DNA of 64,000 nucleotides from Escherichia phage ZX4221. A program made the position numbers and the translations under genes. The notes under the pieces are model-generated. The model did not search any database. It was not told the origin of the DNA and was given only the letters and a program-made list of their open reading frames with translations. The stretch lies in sequence record OR498728.1; one strand, given 5' to 3'. Of this stretch, positions 1 to 52,930 are shown piece after piece (the first letter of the stretch is position 1; the number at the start of each line of letters is the position of its first letter).

Positions 1-1100
1 GCCCCCTTAACATTTTCTTAACAATTTCTTAACAACCCCTACATAGTTATGCTTTTAAGGCACTTGTTAGCAACTTGTTAGCCCCTTGTTAAATATCTGT
101 TAAGACCACGTAAAAGCCTTGTAAGAGTCTTTAGCATAGCCTTTAAAGCCTCTGTAAAGCCCTATAAAGAGGTGTTTGTATAGTTGGGGTGTAATTACTA
201 GGAAGAGACTTAAAAGAGCTTACAAAGAGCTATAGAGAGCTTTTAAGAGGGCTATTTAGAGAATCACTAAGAGGGAAAGGGAACGATAAGAAAAGAGATA
301 GTGACCATGTTAATAGCTTGTTAAAAAGATTAAACACTTGTTAGGAACTTGTTAATTATCTTAACAAAATAACTCTTAAAAATTAACTTGTTAGCTCTTG
401 TTAGTCATCTGTTAAGACTCTGTAAAGTCTATGTATCAACTGTTAAGAACTTGTTACACCCTTGTTAGTTCTGTTAAGAATCTGTTAAGACCTCTGAAGA
501 GATGTTAAGAGGATGTAGTAGCTGTTAAGAGATTGTTAAGGATATTTTAAAATTCTGCAAAGTACTTGTAAGGGAGCTGTTAAGGGCTACCAAGCAGATA
601 TACATCTTCTACAGATATTTTTGAGTTCCTTCAAAGACCCTAAAAAATGACTTGATAGTCCTATTTTATAAAAATTTTAAAATTCTGAATAATTACCTAG
701 ACAGTATTCTAAAAATACAGGCATAAACAGGCTTATAAGATACCTTGTTAATACCGTGTTAGACCTTGTGAGATAAGGTCTGTAAAGATATTCCTGTTAA
801 GTTTGTTAAAACAGTCTATATAGAGGTTTAGTAATACCTAGTGAACACCTATAGAGGGTAACATAGCTGACATAGAGATTAAGAGGTGTATAGGTGCTTC
901 TAAGAGATTATAGAGAGGTGGTTAAGGTGATTGTATAGGTTGTTAAGAAGGCTTGTTAGAAGGCTTGTTAGAGGGCTATTTAGAAGGTTTATACAGAGGG
1001 CTATTAAGACCACTAGATAGATACTAAGATACTATATAGTACTATATAACTATATATATATATATATAGAGAGTAAGCTTAAGAAGGTTGTTAAGAAGGG
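1..1100. repeat. Iteron-like array of short (C/T)TGTTA(A/G) motifs, partly at 10-11 bp phasing; candidate origin or protein-binding array
   Basis: About 30 copies of CTTGTTAG/CTGTTAAG-type motifs read by eye (e.g. 65, 76, 87, 98 are 11 bp apart); second recurring motif TATAGAG(A/G)G; no ORF >=60 aa; window starts inside the region so its left edge is unknown. Confidence 0.55.
1051..1068. repeat. (TA)9 dinucleotide run, possible DNA unwinding element
   Basis: tatatatatatatatata seen directly, embedded in the motif array. Confidence 0.9.
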
Positions 1101-9461: not shown

Positions 9462-9702
9462 AGATAATCCTCTTGTCTTCTGTAATTTTGAAAGAACAGG
9501 TACAGACCAATTTCAGAGGATGAATAGTAGAGTGACTCTACCCTTTTTGATTCCTTACAGTGATTGGTATTTTTACCTTTCTTCGGGTTGTTTGATTTTC
9601 TCATTAAGTCTCCTTTGTAGAACAAGGCAGACCTACAGCTTTAAGTAAGATGGTACAGTAATCCATACAACAAGTCAAGAACTATTGCAAGTTAAAAAAG
9701 TT

Positions 9703-9727
9703 GTTGACAAAGGACTTGACAAGGTGT
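9703..9727. promoter_or_regulatory. Conserved double TTGACAA motif (copy 1) in divergent switch region
   Basis: GTTGACAAAGGACTTGACAAGGTGT; near-identical copy at 52310..52334; spacing to any -10 is not canonical. Confidence 0.45.
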
Positions 9728-9785
9728 AGGCTTATAAATACTTAGAAGATAACTTAAAAGGTTCCTCTAAAAAGGCTATTTAAAC

Positions 9786-9805
9786 AGATATCTTTCTGGA
9801 TATCT
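9786..9805. promoter_or_regulatory. Inverted repeat AGATATC-N6-GATATCT, operator-like
   Basis: Perfect 7 bp arms seen directly, ~50 bp upstream of CDS 9854. Confidence 0.35.
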
Positions 9806-9853
9806 ATCTTTTATCTTAAAAGCCTTTTAAGAGGTCTTATAAGAGGCATACCA

Positions 9854-10225
9854 ATGAAAAACAGAACAAACAAAGGCCAGTTTAAAAAAGGCCAGTCTGG
9901 AAACCCATCTGGAAGACCAAAAGGCTCTCGTAACAAAAGCTCACTTGTAAAAGCTCAACTGACCATTGATAATTCTGCTGAGTTTGCTGCAAAGTTGTTT
10001 GAGGCGATTGTTACAAGGGATGCTGCTAAGCTTGCAGAGTTCGGTTTAAACACAGATGACGTAACCATCAAGAGCATGATTGAGGTCGGTAAAACTATCA
10101 TGACTCACTCAGCAGGTGAGATGAAAGCAATTGCAGCAGATACTAAGAAGACCCCTGATAATGGTGGTCAACCACAGACAGATAACAAACCAACGTTCTC
10201 TGCTGTAGCGACTCTCAAAAAATAA
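9854..10225 (+). CDS. hypothetical protein with GNPSGRPKG motif (123 aa)
   Basis: ORF-track ORF; AAGAGG Shine-Dalgarno 8 nt upstream of ATG. Confidence 0.55.
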   Translation: MKNRTNKGQFKKGQSGNPSGRPKGSRNKSSLVKAQLTIDNSAEFAAKLFEAIVTRDAAKLAEFGLNTDDVTIKSMIEVGKTIMTHSAGEMKAIAADTKKTPDNGGQPQTDNKPTFSAVATLKK

Positions 10226-10237
10226 TTTTAAAAGGTG

Positions 10238-10267
10238 TTGACAGACTCTACAAAGTTACTCTAAAGT
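10238..10267 (+). promoter_or_regulatory. Possible sigma70-like promoter
   Basis: TTGACA at 10238, 17-18 nt spacer, weak -10 (TAAAGT). Confidence 0.3.
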
Positions 10268-10306: not shown

Positions 10307-11722
10307 ATGAGCGAATTATTTAAACATGCGCACCTTCATGCAGGTCGAACTGAAAATGGTGCTGTAAACCATACTTCATCAATGTCTGCTCTGGTAGACT
10401 TCTACAAAGCCGCTGGCTCAAGCCGTAGCAATGTAGAAATCTTACCAGACCTGTTCTACAAAGCTTTGCGTGAGGATGTTGATGTTGCAGTTCGTATTTT
10501 ACTGCATATGCGAGATGTACGAGAAGGTATGGGTGAGCGTAAAGCTTTCCGAACTGTTTTACTTCAAGCGATTGAAGATAAGGTTTTAGAACCTACACAG
10601 GTTCTTCGCATTATGGATAAGATTGCAGAGCTTGGTCGTTTTGATGACTTCAAAATCTTCGTAGGTACTCGTTTTGAGACAGATGCCTTCAAACATTTAG
10701 AAGCAGCATTACTAGACCCTGCAACAGCAGGTTTAGCGGCTAAGTGGTTACCACGAGTAAAACCACGCCACAAACAGTTTGTAAAACGTTTCTGTAAGTT
10801 TGCAAACTTAAGTGAGAAGGAGTATCGCACACTGTTATCTGCACTGTCCGATACGGTTGAGCAAAAAATCTCTGCTAATGAGTTTGGTAAGATTGACTAC
10901 AGCAAGATTCCTTCACTCGCTGCTGCACGTTACCAAAAGCTCTTTAACCGTAAAGATGGTGAACGTTACAAAGCTTATATCGAGTCACTCTCAAAGGGTG
11001 AGGCTAAGATTAACGCTGGTGCTGTTTACCCATACGATGTGATTAAATCTATCAAGTATGGTAATGCAGGTGTTGCTAATGAGCAGTGGAAAGCACTACC
11101 AAACTGGATGGCAGAGGGTGAAAACATCTTGTGTATGACTGATGTTTCAAGCTCAATGTCTTGGGTGAATCTTGGTTCAATCACTGCCCTTGATATTGGC
11201 GTATCACTTGCCTTGTATGTAGCAGAACGCAATACAGGTTGCTTTAAGAATGAGTTAATGGTTTATTCAACAAACCCTCACTTCATCGAACTGAGTGGTG
11301 ATTTGAGAAACCGTCACCGTCAGGTAATGCGTCATGTTGAATATGGTTCAACTAACTTACAAGCAGCTTTTGACCGCATTCTTGAAATAGGTAAGAGAAA
11401 CAACTTGACTCAGAAAGATATGCCAAGTAAGCTTATTATCTTCTCTGATATGGAGTTTAATCAGGTTGATGGTGCAAATGGTCGTACAAACTTTGAAGCA
11501 ATTCAGAGTAAGTACAAAAAAGCTGGATACGAAATGCCACAACTAGTATTCTGGTACTTAGCAAACCGTAATGGTACTTGCGAAGTATCTGTTAAAGATA
11601 ATGGTGTAGCAATGGTATCAGGGTTCTCTCCAGCCACTTTAAAAGCTCTGCTTGGTGGTGAGAAGTTTGACCCAATCAACGTAATGCTCAAAGCAGTAAT
11701 GGTTGACCGTTACATCTGGTAA
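10307..11722 (+). CDS. vWA (MIDAS) domain protein, putatively Ro60/TROVE-like RNA-binding protein
   Basis: 471 aa; C-terminal half has MIDAS-like TDVSSSM ... GSTN ... FSDME; N-terminal TENGAV...ALVDFYKAAGSSR resembles the start of TROVE domains from memory; good RBS; gene is certain, TROVE assignment is inference. Confidence 0.6.
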   Translation: MSELFKHAHLHAGRTENGAVNHTSSMSALVDFYKAAGSSRSNVEILPDLFYKALREDVDVAVRILLHMRDVREGMGERKAFRTVLLQAIEDKVLEPTQVLRIMDKIAELGRFDDFKIFVGTRFETDAFKHLEAALLDPATAGLAAKWLPRVKPRHKQFVKRFCKFANLSEKEYRTLLSALSDTVEQKISANEFGKIDYSKIPSLAAARYQKLFNRKDGERYKAYIESLSKGEAKINAGAVYPYDVIKSIKYGNAGVANEQWKALPNWMAEGENILCMTDVSSSMSWVNLGSITALDIGVSLALYVAERNTGCFKNELMVYSTNPHFIELSGDLRNRHRQVMRHVEYGSTNLQAAFDRILEIGKRNNLTQKDMPSKLIIFSDMEFNQVDGANGRTNFEAIQSKYKKAGYEMPQLVFWYLANRNGTCEVSVKDNGVAMVSGFSPATLKALLGGEKFDPINVMLKAVMVDRYIW

Positions 11723-11730
11723 AAAGTTTA

Positions 11731-11768
11731 AAAAGGGTATTGACAATGTGTTTAATACCCTTTAATAT
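11731..11768 (+). promoter_or_regulatory. Sigma70-like promoter for the tRNA array, embedded in a hairpin
   Basis: TTGACA 11740-45, 17 nt spacer, TAATAT 11763-68; flanked by 9 bp inverted repeat AAAGGGTAT/ATACCCTTT. Confidence 0.55.
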
Positions 11769-11830: not shown

Positions 11831-11860
11831 TTGACAACCACTAAAAAATAATGTTAAAGT
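11831..11860 (+). promoter_or_regulatory. Possible second promoter upstream of first tRNA
   Basis: TTGACA at 11831-36 with weak -10 about 17-18 nt downstream. Confidence 0.3.
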
Positions 11861-43912: not shown

Positions 43913-44242
43913 TTAATCTGCCAGCCTTAAATTAAAATTAACACCAAATTTTTCGCATACTTCCAACATATACTCAAGGGAGACATTACCAGTGAGGTGG
44001 ATTATGTTGGATACACGAGCCTGAGAGATACCACAAATTTTAGCAACTTGCTCTTGGGAAAGACCTCTGGATTTAATCTCTCTCTTAAAACGATGTGCAA
44101 CGAAATCTCTCATTTCGTCTACATCCATTGGACAAACATAACTCTCCATTTCAGCCTCTCTGTCAGCCTCCCAATCATCTTGTGGAGCATAAGGGTCAAA
44201 AACCTCATTCATCTTTCTTCTTCCGTTTGCGTGAAGTATCAA
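43913..44242 (-). CDS. helix-turn-helix DNA-binding protein (XRE-like)
   Basis: GLSQEQVAKICGISQARVSNI is a typical HTH signature. Confidence 0.6.
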   Translation of the reverse strand: MILHANGRRKMNEVFDPYAPQDDWEADREAEMESYVCPMDVDEMRDFVAHRFKREIKSRGLSQEQVAKICGISQARVSNIIHLTGNVSLEYMLEVCEKFGVNFNLRLAD

Positions 44243-49550: not shown

Positions 49551-52250
49551 TTAGTGTACTTCAAGCCAGCTTTTGCCAACCTTACCAGTACCTGTAACAA
49601 GCGTTTCTTTCTTAAGACCTAAGTTTTTAGAAGCTTGTCCATAATACCAGTCAGTAACTGCTTTCACATCTGCCGTCATACTCTCTGGACATTCCCAACT
49701 CGTCTCGTCGTGATATGCGCAGAGCAAACGAGCACCAATAGCTGGTTGACGACCATTCAACTTCATCAAACCTTCGTCAATCATACGACGACAAGCAAGG
49801 TTAATCGCCTCATTTTGAATCTGAGCCTCTGAACCCATTAGCAAATAATTCAATAACTTATGTGGAGATTTACACCACAACCAAGCTCCAGCAACCCTTA
49901 CAAAACCCCCTTTAGAGATTGCAGCAGTTTTACCAAACACCTCTTCAAGTGCCTTTTTAGTTGCTTTGTAGTCAGCTTCCAAGTCATCTAGCAACTTCTT
50001 AATTTTAGGCAAACGAATAAAGTAAGTCTGTTTAGTCAGTGCACCTTCCTGAGTAGTTGCAGCTTTAATCGTCTTAGCAAACTTCTCATCACCTGCACCG
50101 AACAGTAGTGCATAGATACCATTCTTAGCTTTCTTACGGCCCTTGCTAATCTCATGGAGAAGGTTCTCATCCTGAGTAGCTCGACAAGTCAAGATATCCT
50201 GCTCATCATTCAAGCTAAAGTAAATACTGTTCAGTGTGTGTGCATCAGTCCCTGAATAGACAACGTAAAGGTCGTTCTCAGAGTCATAGCGAAGGTACTT
50301 ATCAATCTCTGGGTTGAGGTACTCATCAAAGTGTTTGCAGTAATAGCGTCCATCTTCTTGACGAATAAACTCAATCTCTTCTTTACCTTGCGTTACCGCT
50401 TTGGTGAAGTCTTTGTCACCCATAAAGTTACAAAGAAGAACTAGCTGGGCTGAGTTCATGTCTACAGAGACAACGTTAGTACCTTCCTCACAAATCCATA
50501 CTGCCCTCATTGGTTCCCCATAGACAGCAGCACCAGACGGTACGTTTACAATACCATACTGTGTCATACGTCCAGTTGAAGTACCAAATACCATTGCACC
50601 AGCACTAAGGCGACCATCTGGACGAATCTGGTTCAACCAACCTTTTTCATCATCCTTTGAGTTCTCAATAGTTCTGCGTCGGTGCATCAAGGTATAGTAC
50701 TTAGCAATCTTCTGTCCAAGCTCACCTTCAATCGTATCATAAGATGATTCAGTAAGTTTTGGTGAAGTACGGATTAAGCAAGGCTCAAGCAAATCTGTGT
50801 ACTTCTTCACAGACCAGTTATGCTCAATGTATTGGACACCTTCATGTTCAACATAACTCAAACCACACCGTTCAACCATCTCCTGCCACTTAGGATGCTT
50901 GGTAATCATCTTTTTGTTGTCTTTGAAACGACAAACCTTAACAGGACGACCATCTGAGTCTTTCTTGTAGTTCCAGTCATCTGGAATCCAACCAACTGAT
51001 TTCAAGTAGTCTTTAACAACTGCTACCTGAGTCATACGAGAAACTTCGAACTCAATTGGTGTATATGGTGCATCAATCAAACCTGTGTAGCGACTTGACT
51101 CAAGTTCAAAGTGGTTAACAACATGACTGTTATAGTACTTCACAGTCTTAACTGTTTTTACTGGCTTCCAGTCTTTGCACTTCTTACCAATCTTTGCATT
51201 CAACTCATTGCAAATTGCACGAGCATCCTTCATTGCTACAAAACCTTCCTTGTACTCTTCACCAGTTACAGAGTTGGTTGGGGTATAGCAATTCCGCTTT
51301 TCAATGTTAAAAATCTTGGTAGTTGGTTTACCAAATGGCTTGATTTCATATGTCTGCATCTCACCGTTACGTACCTGTTGACGATACTTTGTCTTAGGGT
51401 ACTTGGTAATTCTTTTCAGTCCATCTGCATGACCAAACGCTTCAACATACTCATTCCAAGCTTTTGCAAACTCTTCTCCAGTAACTTTACCTTTGGTTTT
51501 AATAGTTGGAGGAAGATGTGGTTCAACTTCTGAAGCAAGCTCATTAGTCAACTTGTCAAGTTCCTTTACATGGAACTCCATAAGCTCTTTATCAGCTTTC
51601 CAACCATTGATAGCCTGTTGACTCATCCAGAAAGATGTTTCTTTAGCTCGCATGTAGGTTTCATAAGTATCTACGCCACACTTCTTCAGCTTGAGATATT
51701 CATTATCCAGTGCACGTTTAGTTTTGGCGTTAATACGAATATCCTCTACGACACGAGTGAAGATTTCTGCATTCCACACACCCCAATGTTCAATCTCTGG
51801 TTTACGTACACCAACACGAGCACCCCATGCTGCCAAGCCATGAGCACCTTTATAGCCCTTTGGAGTTGGTCTATCCATCCACTGAACACGAGACTGGATA
51901 AGAGAATCCTGAAAGAAATTACTCCACGGCTTACACTTTGGATTATCAAAGTTCCATAAATCAGGTGCAATGTGATTGAAAACCCACCAGTCATAACCCA
52001 GACCATTATGGATGCAAAGTCGTTTTGCCTTTAACGCAAACTCAATACCTTCACGCAAACCACCCTTGATGTACTTGGTGTATTTGTGACCGAGGATAGG
52101 CTCATCTGTAAAGACCCATACAGGTGGCTCTTCATCGTCAGATTTATAGTCTGCGAAAGCCATTACGTGCACTTTAGTGAACTCAAGGAGTAAACCATCA
52201 GTTTCTGTATCACCAACTAAATGTAAGTTTTTAAAATCTACGTTTTCCAT
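49551..52250 (-). CDS. DNA polymerase, family A, with 3'-5' exonuclease domain
   Basis: N-terminal DTETDGL (exo motif I); VDMNSAQLVLL (motif A-like); KNGIYALLFGAG (motif B-like); YHDE (motif C); start set to ATG following AGAGGGAG RBS. Confidence 0.85.
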   Translation of the reverse strand: MENVDFKNLHLVGDTETDGLLLEFTKVHVMAFADYKSDDEEPPVWVFTDEPILGHKYTKYIKGGLREGIEFALKAKRLCIHNGLGYDWWVFNHIAPDLWNFDNPKCKPWSNFFQDSLIQSRVQWMDRPTPKGYKGAHGLAAWGARVGVRKPEIEHWGVWNAEIFTRVVEDIRINAKTKRALDNEYLKLKKCGVDTYETYMRAKETSFWMSQQAINGWKADKELMEFHVKELDKLTNELASEVEPHLPPTIKTKGKVTGEEFAKAWNEYVEAFGHADGLKRITKYPKTKYRQQVRNGEMQTYEIKPFGKPTTKIFNIEKRNCYTPTNSVTGEEYKEGFVAMKDARAICNELNAKIGKKCKDWKPVKTVKTVKYYNSHVVNHFELESSRYTGLIDAPYTPIEFEVSRMTQVAVVKDYLKSVGWIPDDWNYKKDSDGRPVKVCRFKDNKKMITKHPKWQEMVERCGLSYVEHEGVQYIEHNWSVKKYTDLLEPCLIRTSPKLTESSYDTIEGELGQKIAKYYTLMHRRRTIENSKDDEKGWLNQIRPDGRLSAGAMVFGTSTGRMTQYGIVNVPSGAAVYGEPMRAVWICEEGTNVVSVDMNSAQLVLLCNFMGDKDFTKAVTQGKEEIEFIRQEDGRYYCKHFDEYLNPEIDKYLRYDSENDLYVVYSGTDAHTLNSIYFSLNDEQDILTCRATQDENLLHEISKGRKKAKNGIYALLFGAGDEKFAKTIKAATTQEGALTKQTYFIRLPKIKKLLDDLEADYKATKKALEEVFGKTAAISKGGFVRVAGAWLWCKSPHKLLNYLLMGSEAQIQNEAINLACRRMIDEGLMKLNGRQPAIGARLLCAYHDETSWECPESMTADVKAVTDWYYGQASKNLGLKKETLVTGTGKVGKSWLEVH

Positions 52251-52309
52251 TTTTACTCCCTCTAAAATCATTAACCTCATACATTACTGCAAAAAATTAT
52301 AAAAAGCAA

Positions 52310-52334
52310 GTTGACAATGTACTTGACAAGGTGT
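52310..52334. promoter_or_regulatory. Conserved double TTGACAA motif (copy 2) in divergent switch region
   Basis: GTTGACAATGTACTTGACAAGGTGT; matches 9703..9727 at 22 of 25 positions. Confidence 0.45.
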
Positions 52335-52422
52335 TAATCTTTGCGAAGTGGGTTTTTACTTAAAAGGTTACTTAACAGTTTAACTATACAGATACTTTAA
52401 AACTCTTAAAAGATTATTTAAT

Positions 52423-52464
52423 AGCTTTTAAAAAGCTTTAAAGTATAACGTATAGAATACGTTA
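52423..52464. promoter_or_regulatory. Two operator-like palindromes upstream of the rightward replication module
   Basis: AGCTTTTAAAAAGCT (perfect 15 bp palindrome) and TAACGTA-TAGAA-TACGTTA (7 bp arms). Confidence 0.35.
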
Positions 52465-52507
52465 AGATAAAAGATTAAAACTTAATAGTTACTTAAAAGA
52501 GGCTTAC

Positions 52508-52930
52508 ATGCAGAAAATGTTTGTTCACCCAGACATAGCTGACTTTGTTAGAGCTTTGCAGAAGTTGGAAGAACTTGACATTGCTGCTCAACGGGAATAT
52601 GCTCACCATCACAGGAGAATGGTTGATATACAACATGAAATAGAGTTGTCTGAAAACTATGAAGATGACTTAAAATGCTCTGTATTTGAGCATATGAAAG
52701 ATGTTGCTACAGCGAGACGTAAAGCTAAAGACACAGTTGCTTTACTAGATTCTCTTAAAAAGAGGTTGCAAAGTGGTACAGACCTGTGTAATCTAGCGTC
52801 ACTGATTAATGATGTTGAAACTTCTTGGGATAGACATTACTATCCACGTTCTGAAAAGACACTTGACTTTTCTTCATCCGAAAACTTAAAATGTTCTAGA
52901 AAGAAACTTAACCAACTGAGAGAGAAATAA
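52508..52930 (+). CDS. hypothetical protein (140 aa)
   Basis: ORF-track ORF, AAAGAGG RBS. Confidence 0.5.
   Translation: MQKMFVHPDIADFVRALQKLEELDIAAQREYAHHHRRMVDIQHEIELSENYEDDLKCSVFEHMKDVATARRKAKDTVALLDSLKKRLQSGTDLCNLASLINDVETSWDRHYYPRSEKTLDFSSSENLKCSRKKLNQLREK

Follow-up and report, generated by a model that had tools for sequence, protein, structure and literature searches.

Both divergent transcription junctions in the 64,000-nucleotide stretch of phage DNA analysed here (the window) carry a 25-bp motif in which the hexamer TTGACA occurs twice. With a consensus -35 element, an upstream A-tract and a weak -10 element, the two sites are well supported by their sequences as sigma-70-type promoters. 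On balance, the motif is probably a promoter for the host sigma-70 RNA polymerase, present in two paralogous copies and bearing tandem -35 hexamers, the second of which would be read by region 4 of sigma-70. To judge from the related sequences compared here, that second hexamer is a conserved and recurrent element unaccounted for by canonical promoter rules. For the most part the finding is one of ordinary promoter annotation that corrects the published map of phage Felix O1; phages of the Felix O1 type are widely used in the typing and biocontrol of Salmonella and E. coli, and a gap in the genome paper is filled.

Genomic setting of the two sites

A 3-kb stretch around the first site (site A) shares 95-99% identity with over 160 Felixounavirus genomes, the best match to this query being the complete genome of Escherichia phage SME50 (99% identity). 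By this similarity, the 64-kb window belongs to Felixounavirus and represents a Felix O1-like coliphage. The Felixounavirus relatives are myoviruses that infect Escherichia, Salmonella and Shigella, and their genomes measure about 86-90 kb. The open reading frame (ORF) map together with the SME50 annotation resolves four transcription units, as described for Felix O1. At site A, a leftward unit on the minus strand has its boundary near 9600, with the edge of its first gene at about 9604, and a rightward unit on the plus strand runs from 9854 through genes for a gp41-like DUF5681 protein, a gp42-like protein and about 25 tRNAs, followed by packaging and structural genes. At the second site (site B), a leftward unit extends from the DNA polymerase gene (49551-52250, minus strand) outward, and a rightward unit for replication and nucleotide metabolism begins at 52508 (plus strand), placing the polymerase gene on one side of the site and primase and helicase genes on the other. 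Each motif lies between a leftward and a rightward module (about 9604 and 9854 at site A, 52250 and 52508 at site B), as the preliminary description had proposed.

The longest ORF for the DNA polymerase starts at 52280 on the minus strand, whereas the start annotated in SME50 is equivalent to 52250 and has a GAGGGAG Shine-Dalgarno sequence. Given this annotation and the Shine-Dalgarno sequence, the real start of the gene is 52250 and not 52280; when the start is taken as 52280, the leftward promoter of site B is hidden.

The gene downstream of site A matches DUF5681. The protein that it encodes (9854-10225), the first after site A, has a basic N-terminus of the GNPSGRPKG type. Directly before the tRNA cluster lies the gene for a 471-aa protein (10307-11722), whose annotation differs between records (vWFA, DUF2828 or Ro/TROVE-like RNA-binding). 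No small terminase has been recognised in Felix O1, and both the DUF5681 and the 471-aa proteins are uncharacterised. The sole annotated transcriptional regulator is an XRE-type helix-turn-helix (HTH) protein at 43913-44212 on the minus strand (Pfam HTH_3, E=6e-10, with a sub-threshold Sigma70_r4 hit). Its gene belongs to the transcription unit starting leftward at site B, and the solved structures closest to the protein have generic XRE, HipB or C-protein folds.

Relationship between the two copies

The 25-mer reads GTTGACAAAGGACTTGACAAGGTGT at site A (9703-9727) and GTTGACAATGTACTTGACAAGGTGT at site B (52310-52334). Both copies were found at 9703 and 52310, where they had originally been noticed, and the direct repeats of TTGACAA are 12 bp apart as reported (starts at 9704 and 9716, and at 52311 and 52323). 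Their identity had been given as 22 of 25 positions; it is 23 of 25, with two differences rather than three, at positions 9 and 11. The preliminary description had suggested a search for further copies as a check. With up to three mismatches allowed, there are exactly two matches in the window, against 0.00 expected from 100 dinucleotide-preserving shuffles, and only two in the complete SME50 genome, one in each half of the genome and at the same two junctions. The absence of further copies, which the preliminary description had listed among the refuting outcomes and which is the case in this genome, is no argument against function, since the architecture recurs in other phage lineages.

The similarity between the two sites reaches well beyond the 25-mer. 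Positions 9660-9860 align to 52267-52515 with a mean column identity of 72% over 257 columns, and the blocks common to both comprise ACTTAAAAGGTT about 24 nt downstream, ACAGATA, and a ribosome-binding region, AAGAGGCnTAC, before the start codons. Because this similarity extends loosely through the leader to the ribosome-binding site, the whole unit is a duplicated regulatory cassette. By this alignment the cassettes of sites A and B, each with its promoter, leader and ribosome-binding site, are paralogous, and features common to both are therefore not independent.

As the two cassettes align from the A-tract to the start codon, this genome contains one unit, made up of promoter, Shine-Dalgarno sequence and start codon, twice. 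In 2010, Arbiol reportedly described PeSL (promoter-early stem-loop) cassettes in T4-like phages. Each combines an AT-rich block with a sigma-70-like promoter, a Shine-Dalgarno sequence and a start codon, and a genome has several copies (Comeau 2014, PMC4122927). The predicted cassettes at sites A and B are like PeSL cassettes in being repeated composite units of promoter, Shine-Dalgarno sequence and start codon. They are unlike them in that PeSL cassettes have a stem-loop just upstream and occur in many copies in hyperplastic regions, whereas here two copies with a doubled -35 hexamer stand at divergent junctions. No terminator-like hairpin upstream of either motif was detected by the scan, the sole hairpin at site A (9527-9541) lying inside the first leftward gene.

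Words of the form CTTWWWAG (CTTAAAAG/CTTTTAAG, CTTTAAAG and CTTATAAG) number 49 in the window, where a first-order Markov model predicts about 17. They are concentrated in both leaders (9753-9843 and 52359-52499) and before many start codons, often as CTTAAAAGAGG. The words look like a conserved translation-initiation context, or are possibly a binding word.

Predicted promoters at the two junctions

Homologous regions were drawn from IMG/VR contigs via the neighbouring proteins, giving 10 distinct versions per site; as the sampling was by neighbouring proteins, the sample of relatives is unbiased regarding the motif. At site A, the first TTGACA (hexamer 1; 9704-9709, plus strand), the putative -35 element, is invariant in the 10 relatives and is separated by 17 bp from a TAnnnT hexamer, TAGGCT (9727-9732). 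With the TG that precedes it, this candidate -10 element spans 9725-9732 (plus strand). The TG is invariant in the relatives, where the -10 reads TAGGCT, TAGCCT, TAAGTT or TAGTGT; it abuts the hexamer at -14/-13, the TG of a canonical extended -10 being at -15/-14. At site B, hexamer 1 (52311-52316, plus strand), again the putative -35, is invariant and lies 18 bp from TAATCT (52335-52340), part of a candidate extended -10 of the form TG-n-TAATCT (52332-52340, plus strand). The TG and TA.TCT are kept, the versions among the relatives being TGTTAATCT, TGTTAGTCT and TGGTAGTCT, in which the TG is fixed and n varies.

The preliminary description had stated that neither site has a well-spaced -10. 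That statement does not hold for the first TTGACA, which is followed by TAGGCT at 17 bp in site A and by TGtTAATCT at 18 bp in site B. Both -10 hexamers match TATAAT in 3 of 6 positions, which is why they were overlooked at first and left uncalled by the consensus promoter scan, which made no plus-strand call at either site. Across the 10 + 10 distinct relatives, T-12, A-11 and T-7 are invariant at a fixed spacing from hexamer 1 and the inner three bases vary. Invariance of the three matching positions, with variation at the others, is the signature of a functional -10. Hexamer 1 agrees with the -35 consensus in 6 of 6 positions at both sites and does not vary in the relatives, and each -10 hexamer has A at position 2 and T at position 6 and lies within 16-18 bp of the -35. 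Upstream, an A-tract at 9694-9699 (plus strand; about -45 to -40), the A-run of which is kept in all relatives, resembles the proximal subsite of an UP element; the A-tract of site B is at 52301-52305. The role as an UP element is suggested by the E. coli UP consensus.

From these elements we infer promoter activity, with the 25-mer as the promoter core (about -37 to -13), hexamer 1 as the -35, the A-tract as an UP-like element and a minimal TAnnnT as the -10. RNA polymerase of E. coli or Salmonella would be expected to start about 7 nt past the -10, at about 9739-9740 for site A and near 52347 for site B, where AGTGGGTTTT at the predicted start is conserved in relatives. The copy at site A would drive the rightward gp41/gp42 and tRNA unit, and that at site B the rightward replication and nucleotide-metabolism unit. 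The predicted leaders run to the DUF5681 start codon (9739-9853, plus strand) and to the start codon at 52508 (52347-52507, plus strand), and each can be aligned with the other.

The motif had earlier been judged to look more like a shared regulator site or a non-canonical early promoter than like two independent sigma-70 promoters. A non-canonical promoter does not fit the elements above, which point to a sigma-70-type promoter with an extra conserved element, and no evidence for a dedicated regulator was found. What remains of the earlier view is that the sites are not independent, being apparent copies of one element, and that the doubled TTGACA is conserved, unlike an ordinary spacer.

Strong sigma-70 early promoters of virulent coliphages, such as T7 A1, T5 N25 and the T4 early promoters, have a UP-like A/T block, a near-consensus -35 and often a TG before the -10. 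The predicted Felix-type promoters resemble them in their likely use of the host polymerase, their A-tract, consensus TTGACA, 17-18 bp spacer and TAnnnT, and in being placed to drive early or middle genes together with tRNAs. They differ in that the -10 is unusually weak (3/6) and a second exact TTGACA is conserved in the spacer, a trait that those promoters are not known to have. T4 middle promoters have a MotA box, (a/t)(a/t)TGCTT(t/c)A, centred at -30, and go with the genes motA and asiA. This class was rejected, as the rightward promoters have no TGCTT box and TTGCTT occurs only as the leftward -35 of site B. A T4-type late promoter was likewise rejected: the candidate, TATAAATA at 9733-9740, has 4 copies in the window against 3.85 expected and is unconserved in relatives.

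On the minus strand of site A, the consensus scan called a promoter in a conserved region (9650-9678), consisting of TTGACT (9678-9673), a 17-bp spacer and TACCAT (9655-9650). At site B, the relatives point to a leftward promoter for the polymerase gene (52281-52309, minus strand), with TTGCTT (52309-52304), a 17-bp spacer and TAATGT (52286-52281). Its -35 is invariant in the relatives, the spacing is always 17 bp, the sequence of the spacer varies, and the -10 is TAATGT, TAAGGT, TAGGGT or TAGTGT, such that TAnnnT is kept. The divergent -35 elements of site B stand back-to-back, 1 bp apart.

Roughly a dozen further intergenic sites in the window have the form TTGACA-N17/18-TAnnnT, with the hexamer present once and the -10 better (examples are at 10238, 11740, 11831, 13254, 40646, 56806 and 57145), and other sigma-70-like intergenic sites in the window, e.g. 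that at 11831, also show the layout of A-tract and TTGACAA. The promoter of the tRNA cluster, TTGACA-N17-TAATAT (11733-11768), is embedded in a hairpin, GGGTATT...AATACCC. In SME50, TTGATA stands in the spacer of this promoter as a degenerate second copy of the hexamer, with the offset seen in the double-hexamer promoters; the window has TTAATA there. The 11-mer TTGACAAGGTG, identical to the second unit of the motif, forms the -35 region of a candidate promoter at 49544-49516 (minus strand), a single-hexamer promoter (TTGACA-N17-TACCTT) just past the stop codon of the polymerase gene.

According to its genome paper, Felix O1 lacks an RNA polymerase and, unlike T4, seems to encode no protein that alters the promoter specificity of the host polymerase (Whichard et al. 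2010, PMC3185647). In the same paper, promoter P41 was predicted with the first TTGACA of site A as its -35 (PMC3185647). P41 corresponds to site A; the published version has a 15-bp spacer and the hexamer TATAGG, and the doubled hexamer goes unmentioned (PMC3185647). The hairpin at 11733-11768 corresponds to terminators t42/t43 of that paper (PMC3185647). The junction between ORFs 40 and 41 was called odd, and the 96-97 intergenic region was said to have no homologous sequence (PMC3185647). The latter statement is incorrect, as the identical motif (site B) is present there. ORFs 41, 42, 97, 98 and 99 of Felix O1, along with ORF 96, were in the same RT-PCR time class (PMC3185647). No Felixounavirus transcriptome, transcription-start study or paper containing the motif string was found in the literature searched.

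The second hexamer within the spacer

The second TTGACA (hexamer 2) falls in the spacer of the predicted promoter at both sites, at 9716-9721 (plus strand; -23 to -18) in site A and at 52323-52328 (plus strand; -24 to -19) in site B. Promoter spacers are normally free to vary. Between the two hexamers the bases do vary, at all six positions of site A (AAGGAC, AAGTAC, TTCCTC, AGCCTC, AGGGGA and AATGAC) and at four positions of site B (ATGTAC, ATGCAC, ATGCGC, ATACAC, ATTCAC, AATAAC, AATCAC and AAGCAC), and hexamer 2 is invariant in the 10 distinct relatives of either site, that is, in 20 versions. At site B the inter-hexamer bases differ even between genomes that are nearly identical elsewhere. 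Positions 52319-52321 are a hotspot of variation (TGTAC, TGCAC, TGCGC, TACAC and TGTGC), in which all changes are transitions and the alternation of pyrimidine and purine is retained.

In the window, only the two switch-point promoters carry the doubled hexamer. Outside the hexamers, the two repeat units share just the following A and, mostly, the preceding C. No -10-like sequence is present 16-18 bp past hexamer 2 (TACTTA/CACTTA at site A, AAGTGG at site B). We know of no described role for a -35 hexamer within a spacer, nor, to our knowledge, does any structural model put sigma region 4 at the spacer position during productive initiation.

Recurrence in other phages

IMG/VR was scanned with the pattern TTGACAA-N5-TTGACAA-NN-TGT, and among the matches listed were Felix-like contigs and a large family of environmental contigs. 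The environmental contigs with the doubled motif are uncultured T4-like phages. In this clade the motif lies just upstream of a homologue of g55 (52% identity to cyanophage g55, a late sigma factor), at a locus that adjoins helicase and gp47-like genes. When regions upstream of g55 were sampled via the protein alone, 68 distinct sequences were obtained, and TTGACA (up to one mismatch) followed at 17-18 bp by TAnnnT was found in 65 of the 68. Among these 65 promoter-bearing regions, the spacer contains a second TTGACA that is perfect in 57 and within one mismatch in 61. The T4-like sequences are split about evenly between a hexamer period of 11 bp and one of 12 bp; hexamer 2 sits 5 or 6 nt before the -10, whose distance from hexamer 1 remains 17-18 bp. 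In the rare variants of hexamer 2 (TTGCCA, TTGACT), positions 4-6 are changed more often than TTG.

Other sigma-70-like promoters in the T4-like contigs have a single hexamer. TATAAT is found in 0 of 62 double-hexamer promoters of these contigs as compared to 28 of 133 single-hexamer promoters, a comparison to be taken as indicative since the sequences are related. The T4-like double-hexamer promoter is oriented away from g55 and enters, in antisense, the end of the preceding gene, which encodes a 124-aa protein (e.g. contig L093, 3868-3950, IMG/VR). Such an antisense promoter could control g55 through an antisense RNA or as a roadblock.

Horizontal transfer, suggested by a near-identity of 34 nt between site A and class I of the T4-like sequences (AAAAAGTTGTTGACAAAGGGCTTGACAA..TGTA), was rejected. 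Diverged Felix relatives vary freely outside the hexamers, and the 34-nt match is therefore mostly one of shared consensus elements. Three other candidates were discarded. A T4-like hairpin between the inter-hexamer AAAGGGC and a downstream GCCCTTT in class I has no covariation in class II. For a Bacteroidetes-type -33/-7 promoter of g55, the TAnnTTTG-like strings overlap the Shine-Dalgarno sequence or start codon and are mis-spaced. As for an RNA element, the Rfam matches in 9500-10000 were all at chance level, and three T4-like loci yielded none of relevance.

In Kolesnikvirus, the sister genus, represented by Erwinia phages MM7 and phiEa21-4, each switch-point promoter contains just one hexamer (TTGACA-N17-TACATT and TTTACA-N17-TACACT), and hexamer 2 is thus not required for switch-point function. 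Kolesnikvirus has a double-hexamer promoter at the end of the early region, AAAAAGCCC-TTGACA-TTC(C/T)AC-TTGACA-GGGGC-TAAAGT (MM7 83706-83734, which is L285 43706-43734; phiEa21-4 L287 764-792), facing about 1-1.6 kb of repeat-rich non-coding DNA and then two tiny ORFs. The switch-point promoters of MM7 share a block, GGTGA(A/T)(A/T)..C.AC, upstream of the single -35. Two unrelated viral contigs (IMG/VR L162, 1396-1440, and L197) have iteron-like arrays of at least four head-to-tail TTGACAA units with a 12-bp period, the units being TTGACAATATGT x4 and TTGACAAGTCAT x4.

Possible roles of the second hexamer

Hexamer 2 reproduces the -35 consensus exactly and lies one helical turn past hexamer 1. 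It would be read by sigma-70 region 4, serving as an auxiliary docking or holding site that either raises polymerase occupancy where the -10 is weak or parks the polymerase. We infer region 4 as the reader since hexamer 2 is an exact -35 consensus in lineages sharing little else, degrades as -35 elements do, with variants that keep TTG, and tolerates a shift of one base (period 11 or 12). A reader common to enterobacterial and uncultured T4-like phages would most simply be the host polymerase. The -10s of double-hexamer promoters are weaker, at 3/6 in the Felix sites and without TATAAT at the T4-like loci. A polymerase bound at hexamer 2 would have no -10 to use (AAGTGG at site B, TACTTA at site A), so binding there could inhibit rather than help, and hexamer 2 could be a brake or roadblock. 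The antisense direction of the T4-like promoter, into the upstream gene, would be unexpected of a plain expression signal. Tentatively, tandem -35 promoters may even constitute a distinct, recurrent class of phage promoter in which the spacer TTGACA has a specific job. Hexamer 2 would then offer region 4 an alternative docking register, one that captures or parks the host polymerase or that works after a phage factor repositions or masks region 4, and selection would have kept the tandem arrangement at the divergent junctions of Felixounavirus, upstream of g55 in T4-like phages and at the end of the early region in Kolesnikvirus.

The leading alternative, possible though we think it rather unlikely, is that the two TTGACA(A) units are tandem operator half-sites for a phage protein, such as the HTH protein (43913-44212), or for a host factor. 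Cooperative binding over the -35 and spacer would co-regulate both rightward units, by shut-off or by activation of a weak -10, and the single-hexamer promoters would be spared. The confinement of the doubled hexamer to the two switch-point promoters, absent as it is from the dozen or so others in the window, would suit such an operator, as would the location of the HTH_3 protein gene in the unit starting leftward at site B and the single time class of the ORFs downstream of both sites. However, three lineages that probably have no specific regulator in common all use the exact -35 consensus as the repeat unit, a rigid dimer would not usually go with a period that is 11 bp in some members of a clade and 12 bp in others, and the units lack an extended common flank beyond the following A and, mostly, the preceding C. 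Moreover, XRE-type HTH dimers usually bind inverted rather than direct repeats, the nearest structures are generic, and nothing connects the HTH protein to the motif. In favour of an operator, the weak -10 and the direct repeats around the -35 also recall the lambda CII-dependent promoters. Sites for lambda CII and P22 C1 are TTGC-N6-TTGC direct repeats with a 10-bp period that straddle the poor -35 of pRE. A C1 motif is quoted in PMC4837284. Like those sites, the motif has short direct repeats about one helical turn apart that overlap the -35, together with weak core elements; unlike them, its period is 11-12 bp and not 10, its unit is the -35 consensus, and its second unit lies downstream of the -35. 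A CII-type activated promoter was rejected given that the repeats are TTGACA, the -35 consensus, at a 12-bp period, and no gene of the CII family was seen in the phage. Readings of the repeat as a Pho-box, an IHF site or a CII-like site were dismissed for mismatches in period or sequence.

As TTGACAA is close to its own reverse complement (TTGTCAA), it might also serve the leftward promoters as a bidirectional -35, which we regard as very unlikely. The scan's minus-strand candidate at site A, TTGTCA (9710-9705) with an 18-bp spacer and AATAGT after a TG, is in line with such use and keeps a spacing of 18-19 bp in diverged relatives, but a better leftward promoter exists there (TTGACT-N17-TACCAT). 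At site B, no conserved -10 lies 16-18 bp from the TTGTCAs (a TATAAT at 10/22 bp is absent from relatives), the conserved leftward promoter, TTGCTT-N17-TAnnnT, is outside the motif, and the T4-like clade has nothing suitable leftward. That hexamer 2 is the -35 of a second, overlapping rightward promoter starting about 12 nt downstream seems extremely improbable. A T4-like subgroup (L150, L185) does have TAGCCT 18 bp past hexamer 2, but most T4-like members have TGTTCC, TATGTC or TAGCCC at that spacing, and the Felix sites have no T at -7 or conserved TAnnnT 16-18 bp past hexamer 2. In the lac control region, P2 and P1 are overlapping polymerase-binding sites, and P2 has its own -10 and start. 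The motif is like lac P2/P1 in that a second promoter-like site overlaps the productive promoter and might affect it through competition or recruitment, and unlike lac P2 in that hexamer 2 has no -10 partner.

We consider it highly improbable that the element mainly holds polymerase or forms an R-loop for replication priming or insulation of transcription units. The T4-like and Kolesnikvirus promoters face a gene end in antisense or non-coding repeats rather than a downstream ORF, and site B lies between the polymerase and the primase/helicase genes, in keeping with an origin or roadblock. Both sites are also minima of the cumulative GC skew, but the skew here simply follows the coding strand; both Felix copies have conserved leaders and ribosome-binding sites leading into genes, and no evidence of a DNA-unwinding element was found. 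Exceedingly unlikely, too, is that hexamer 2 is a functionless relic of an internal 12-bp duplication within a duplicated cassette. Sites A and B being paralogous, their common features are indeed not independent evidence of function; yet hexamer 2 is invariant where most inter-hexamer bases have changed, and it recurs in two other lineages with unrelated flanks.

Under the favoured reading of a sigma-70 promoter with tandem -35 hexamers, the presence of the same cassette at both junctions provides a model for co-expression of the replication unit with the gp41/42 and tRNA unit. A -35 hexamer conserved within the spacer in several unrelated phage lineages lies outside the standard promoter model. 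If hexamer 2 is functional, it would be a new element of promoter grammar and a compact part for tuning polymerase occupancy; if it is inert or a plain operator, the result is ordinary promoter annotation.

Repeats at the start of the window

The first 1.1 kb or so of the window (1-1100) is non-coding and rich in short direct words that follow the pattern YTGTTAR. Within the initial 1000 nt, CTTGTTA or its reverse complement is present 13 times. For CTGTTAAG/CTTAACAG, 8 occurrences fall in the initial 800 nt, and the window-wide total of 19 compares with 3.7 expected. CTTAACAG is also found once in the leader of site B (52371). The equivalent region of Kolesnikvirus (L285 43780-44000) has TTCTAAAC words instead. 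A (TA)n run is present at about 1040-1070. The stretch at 1-1100 could be an iteron, packaging or origin array.
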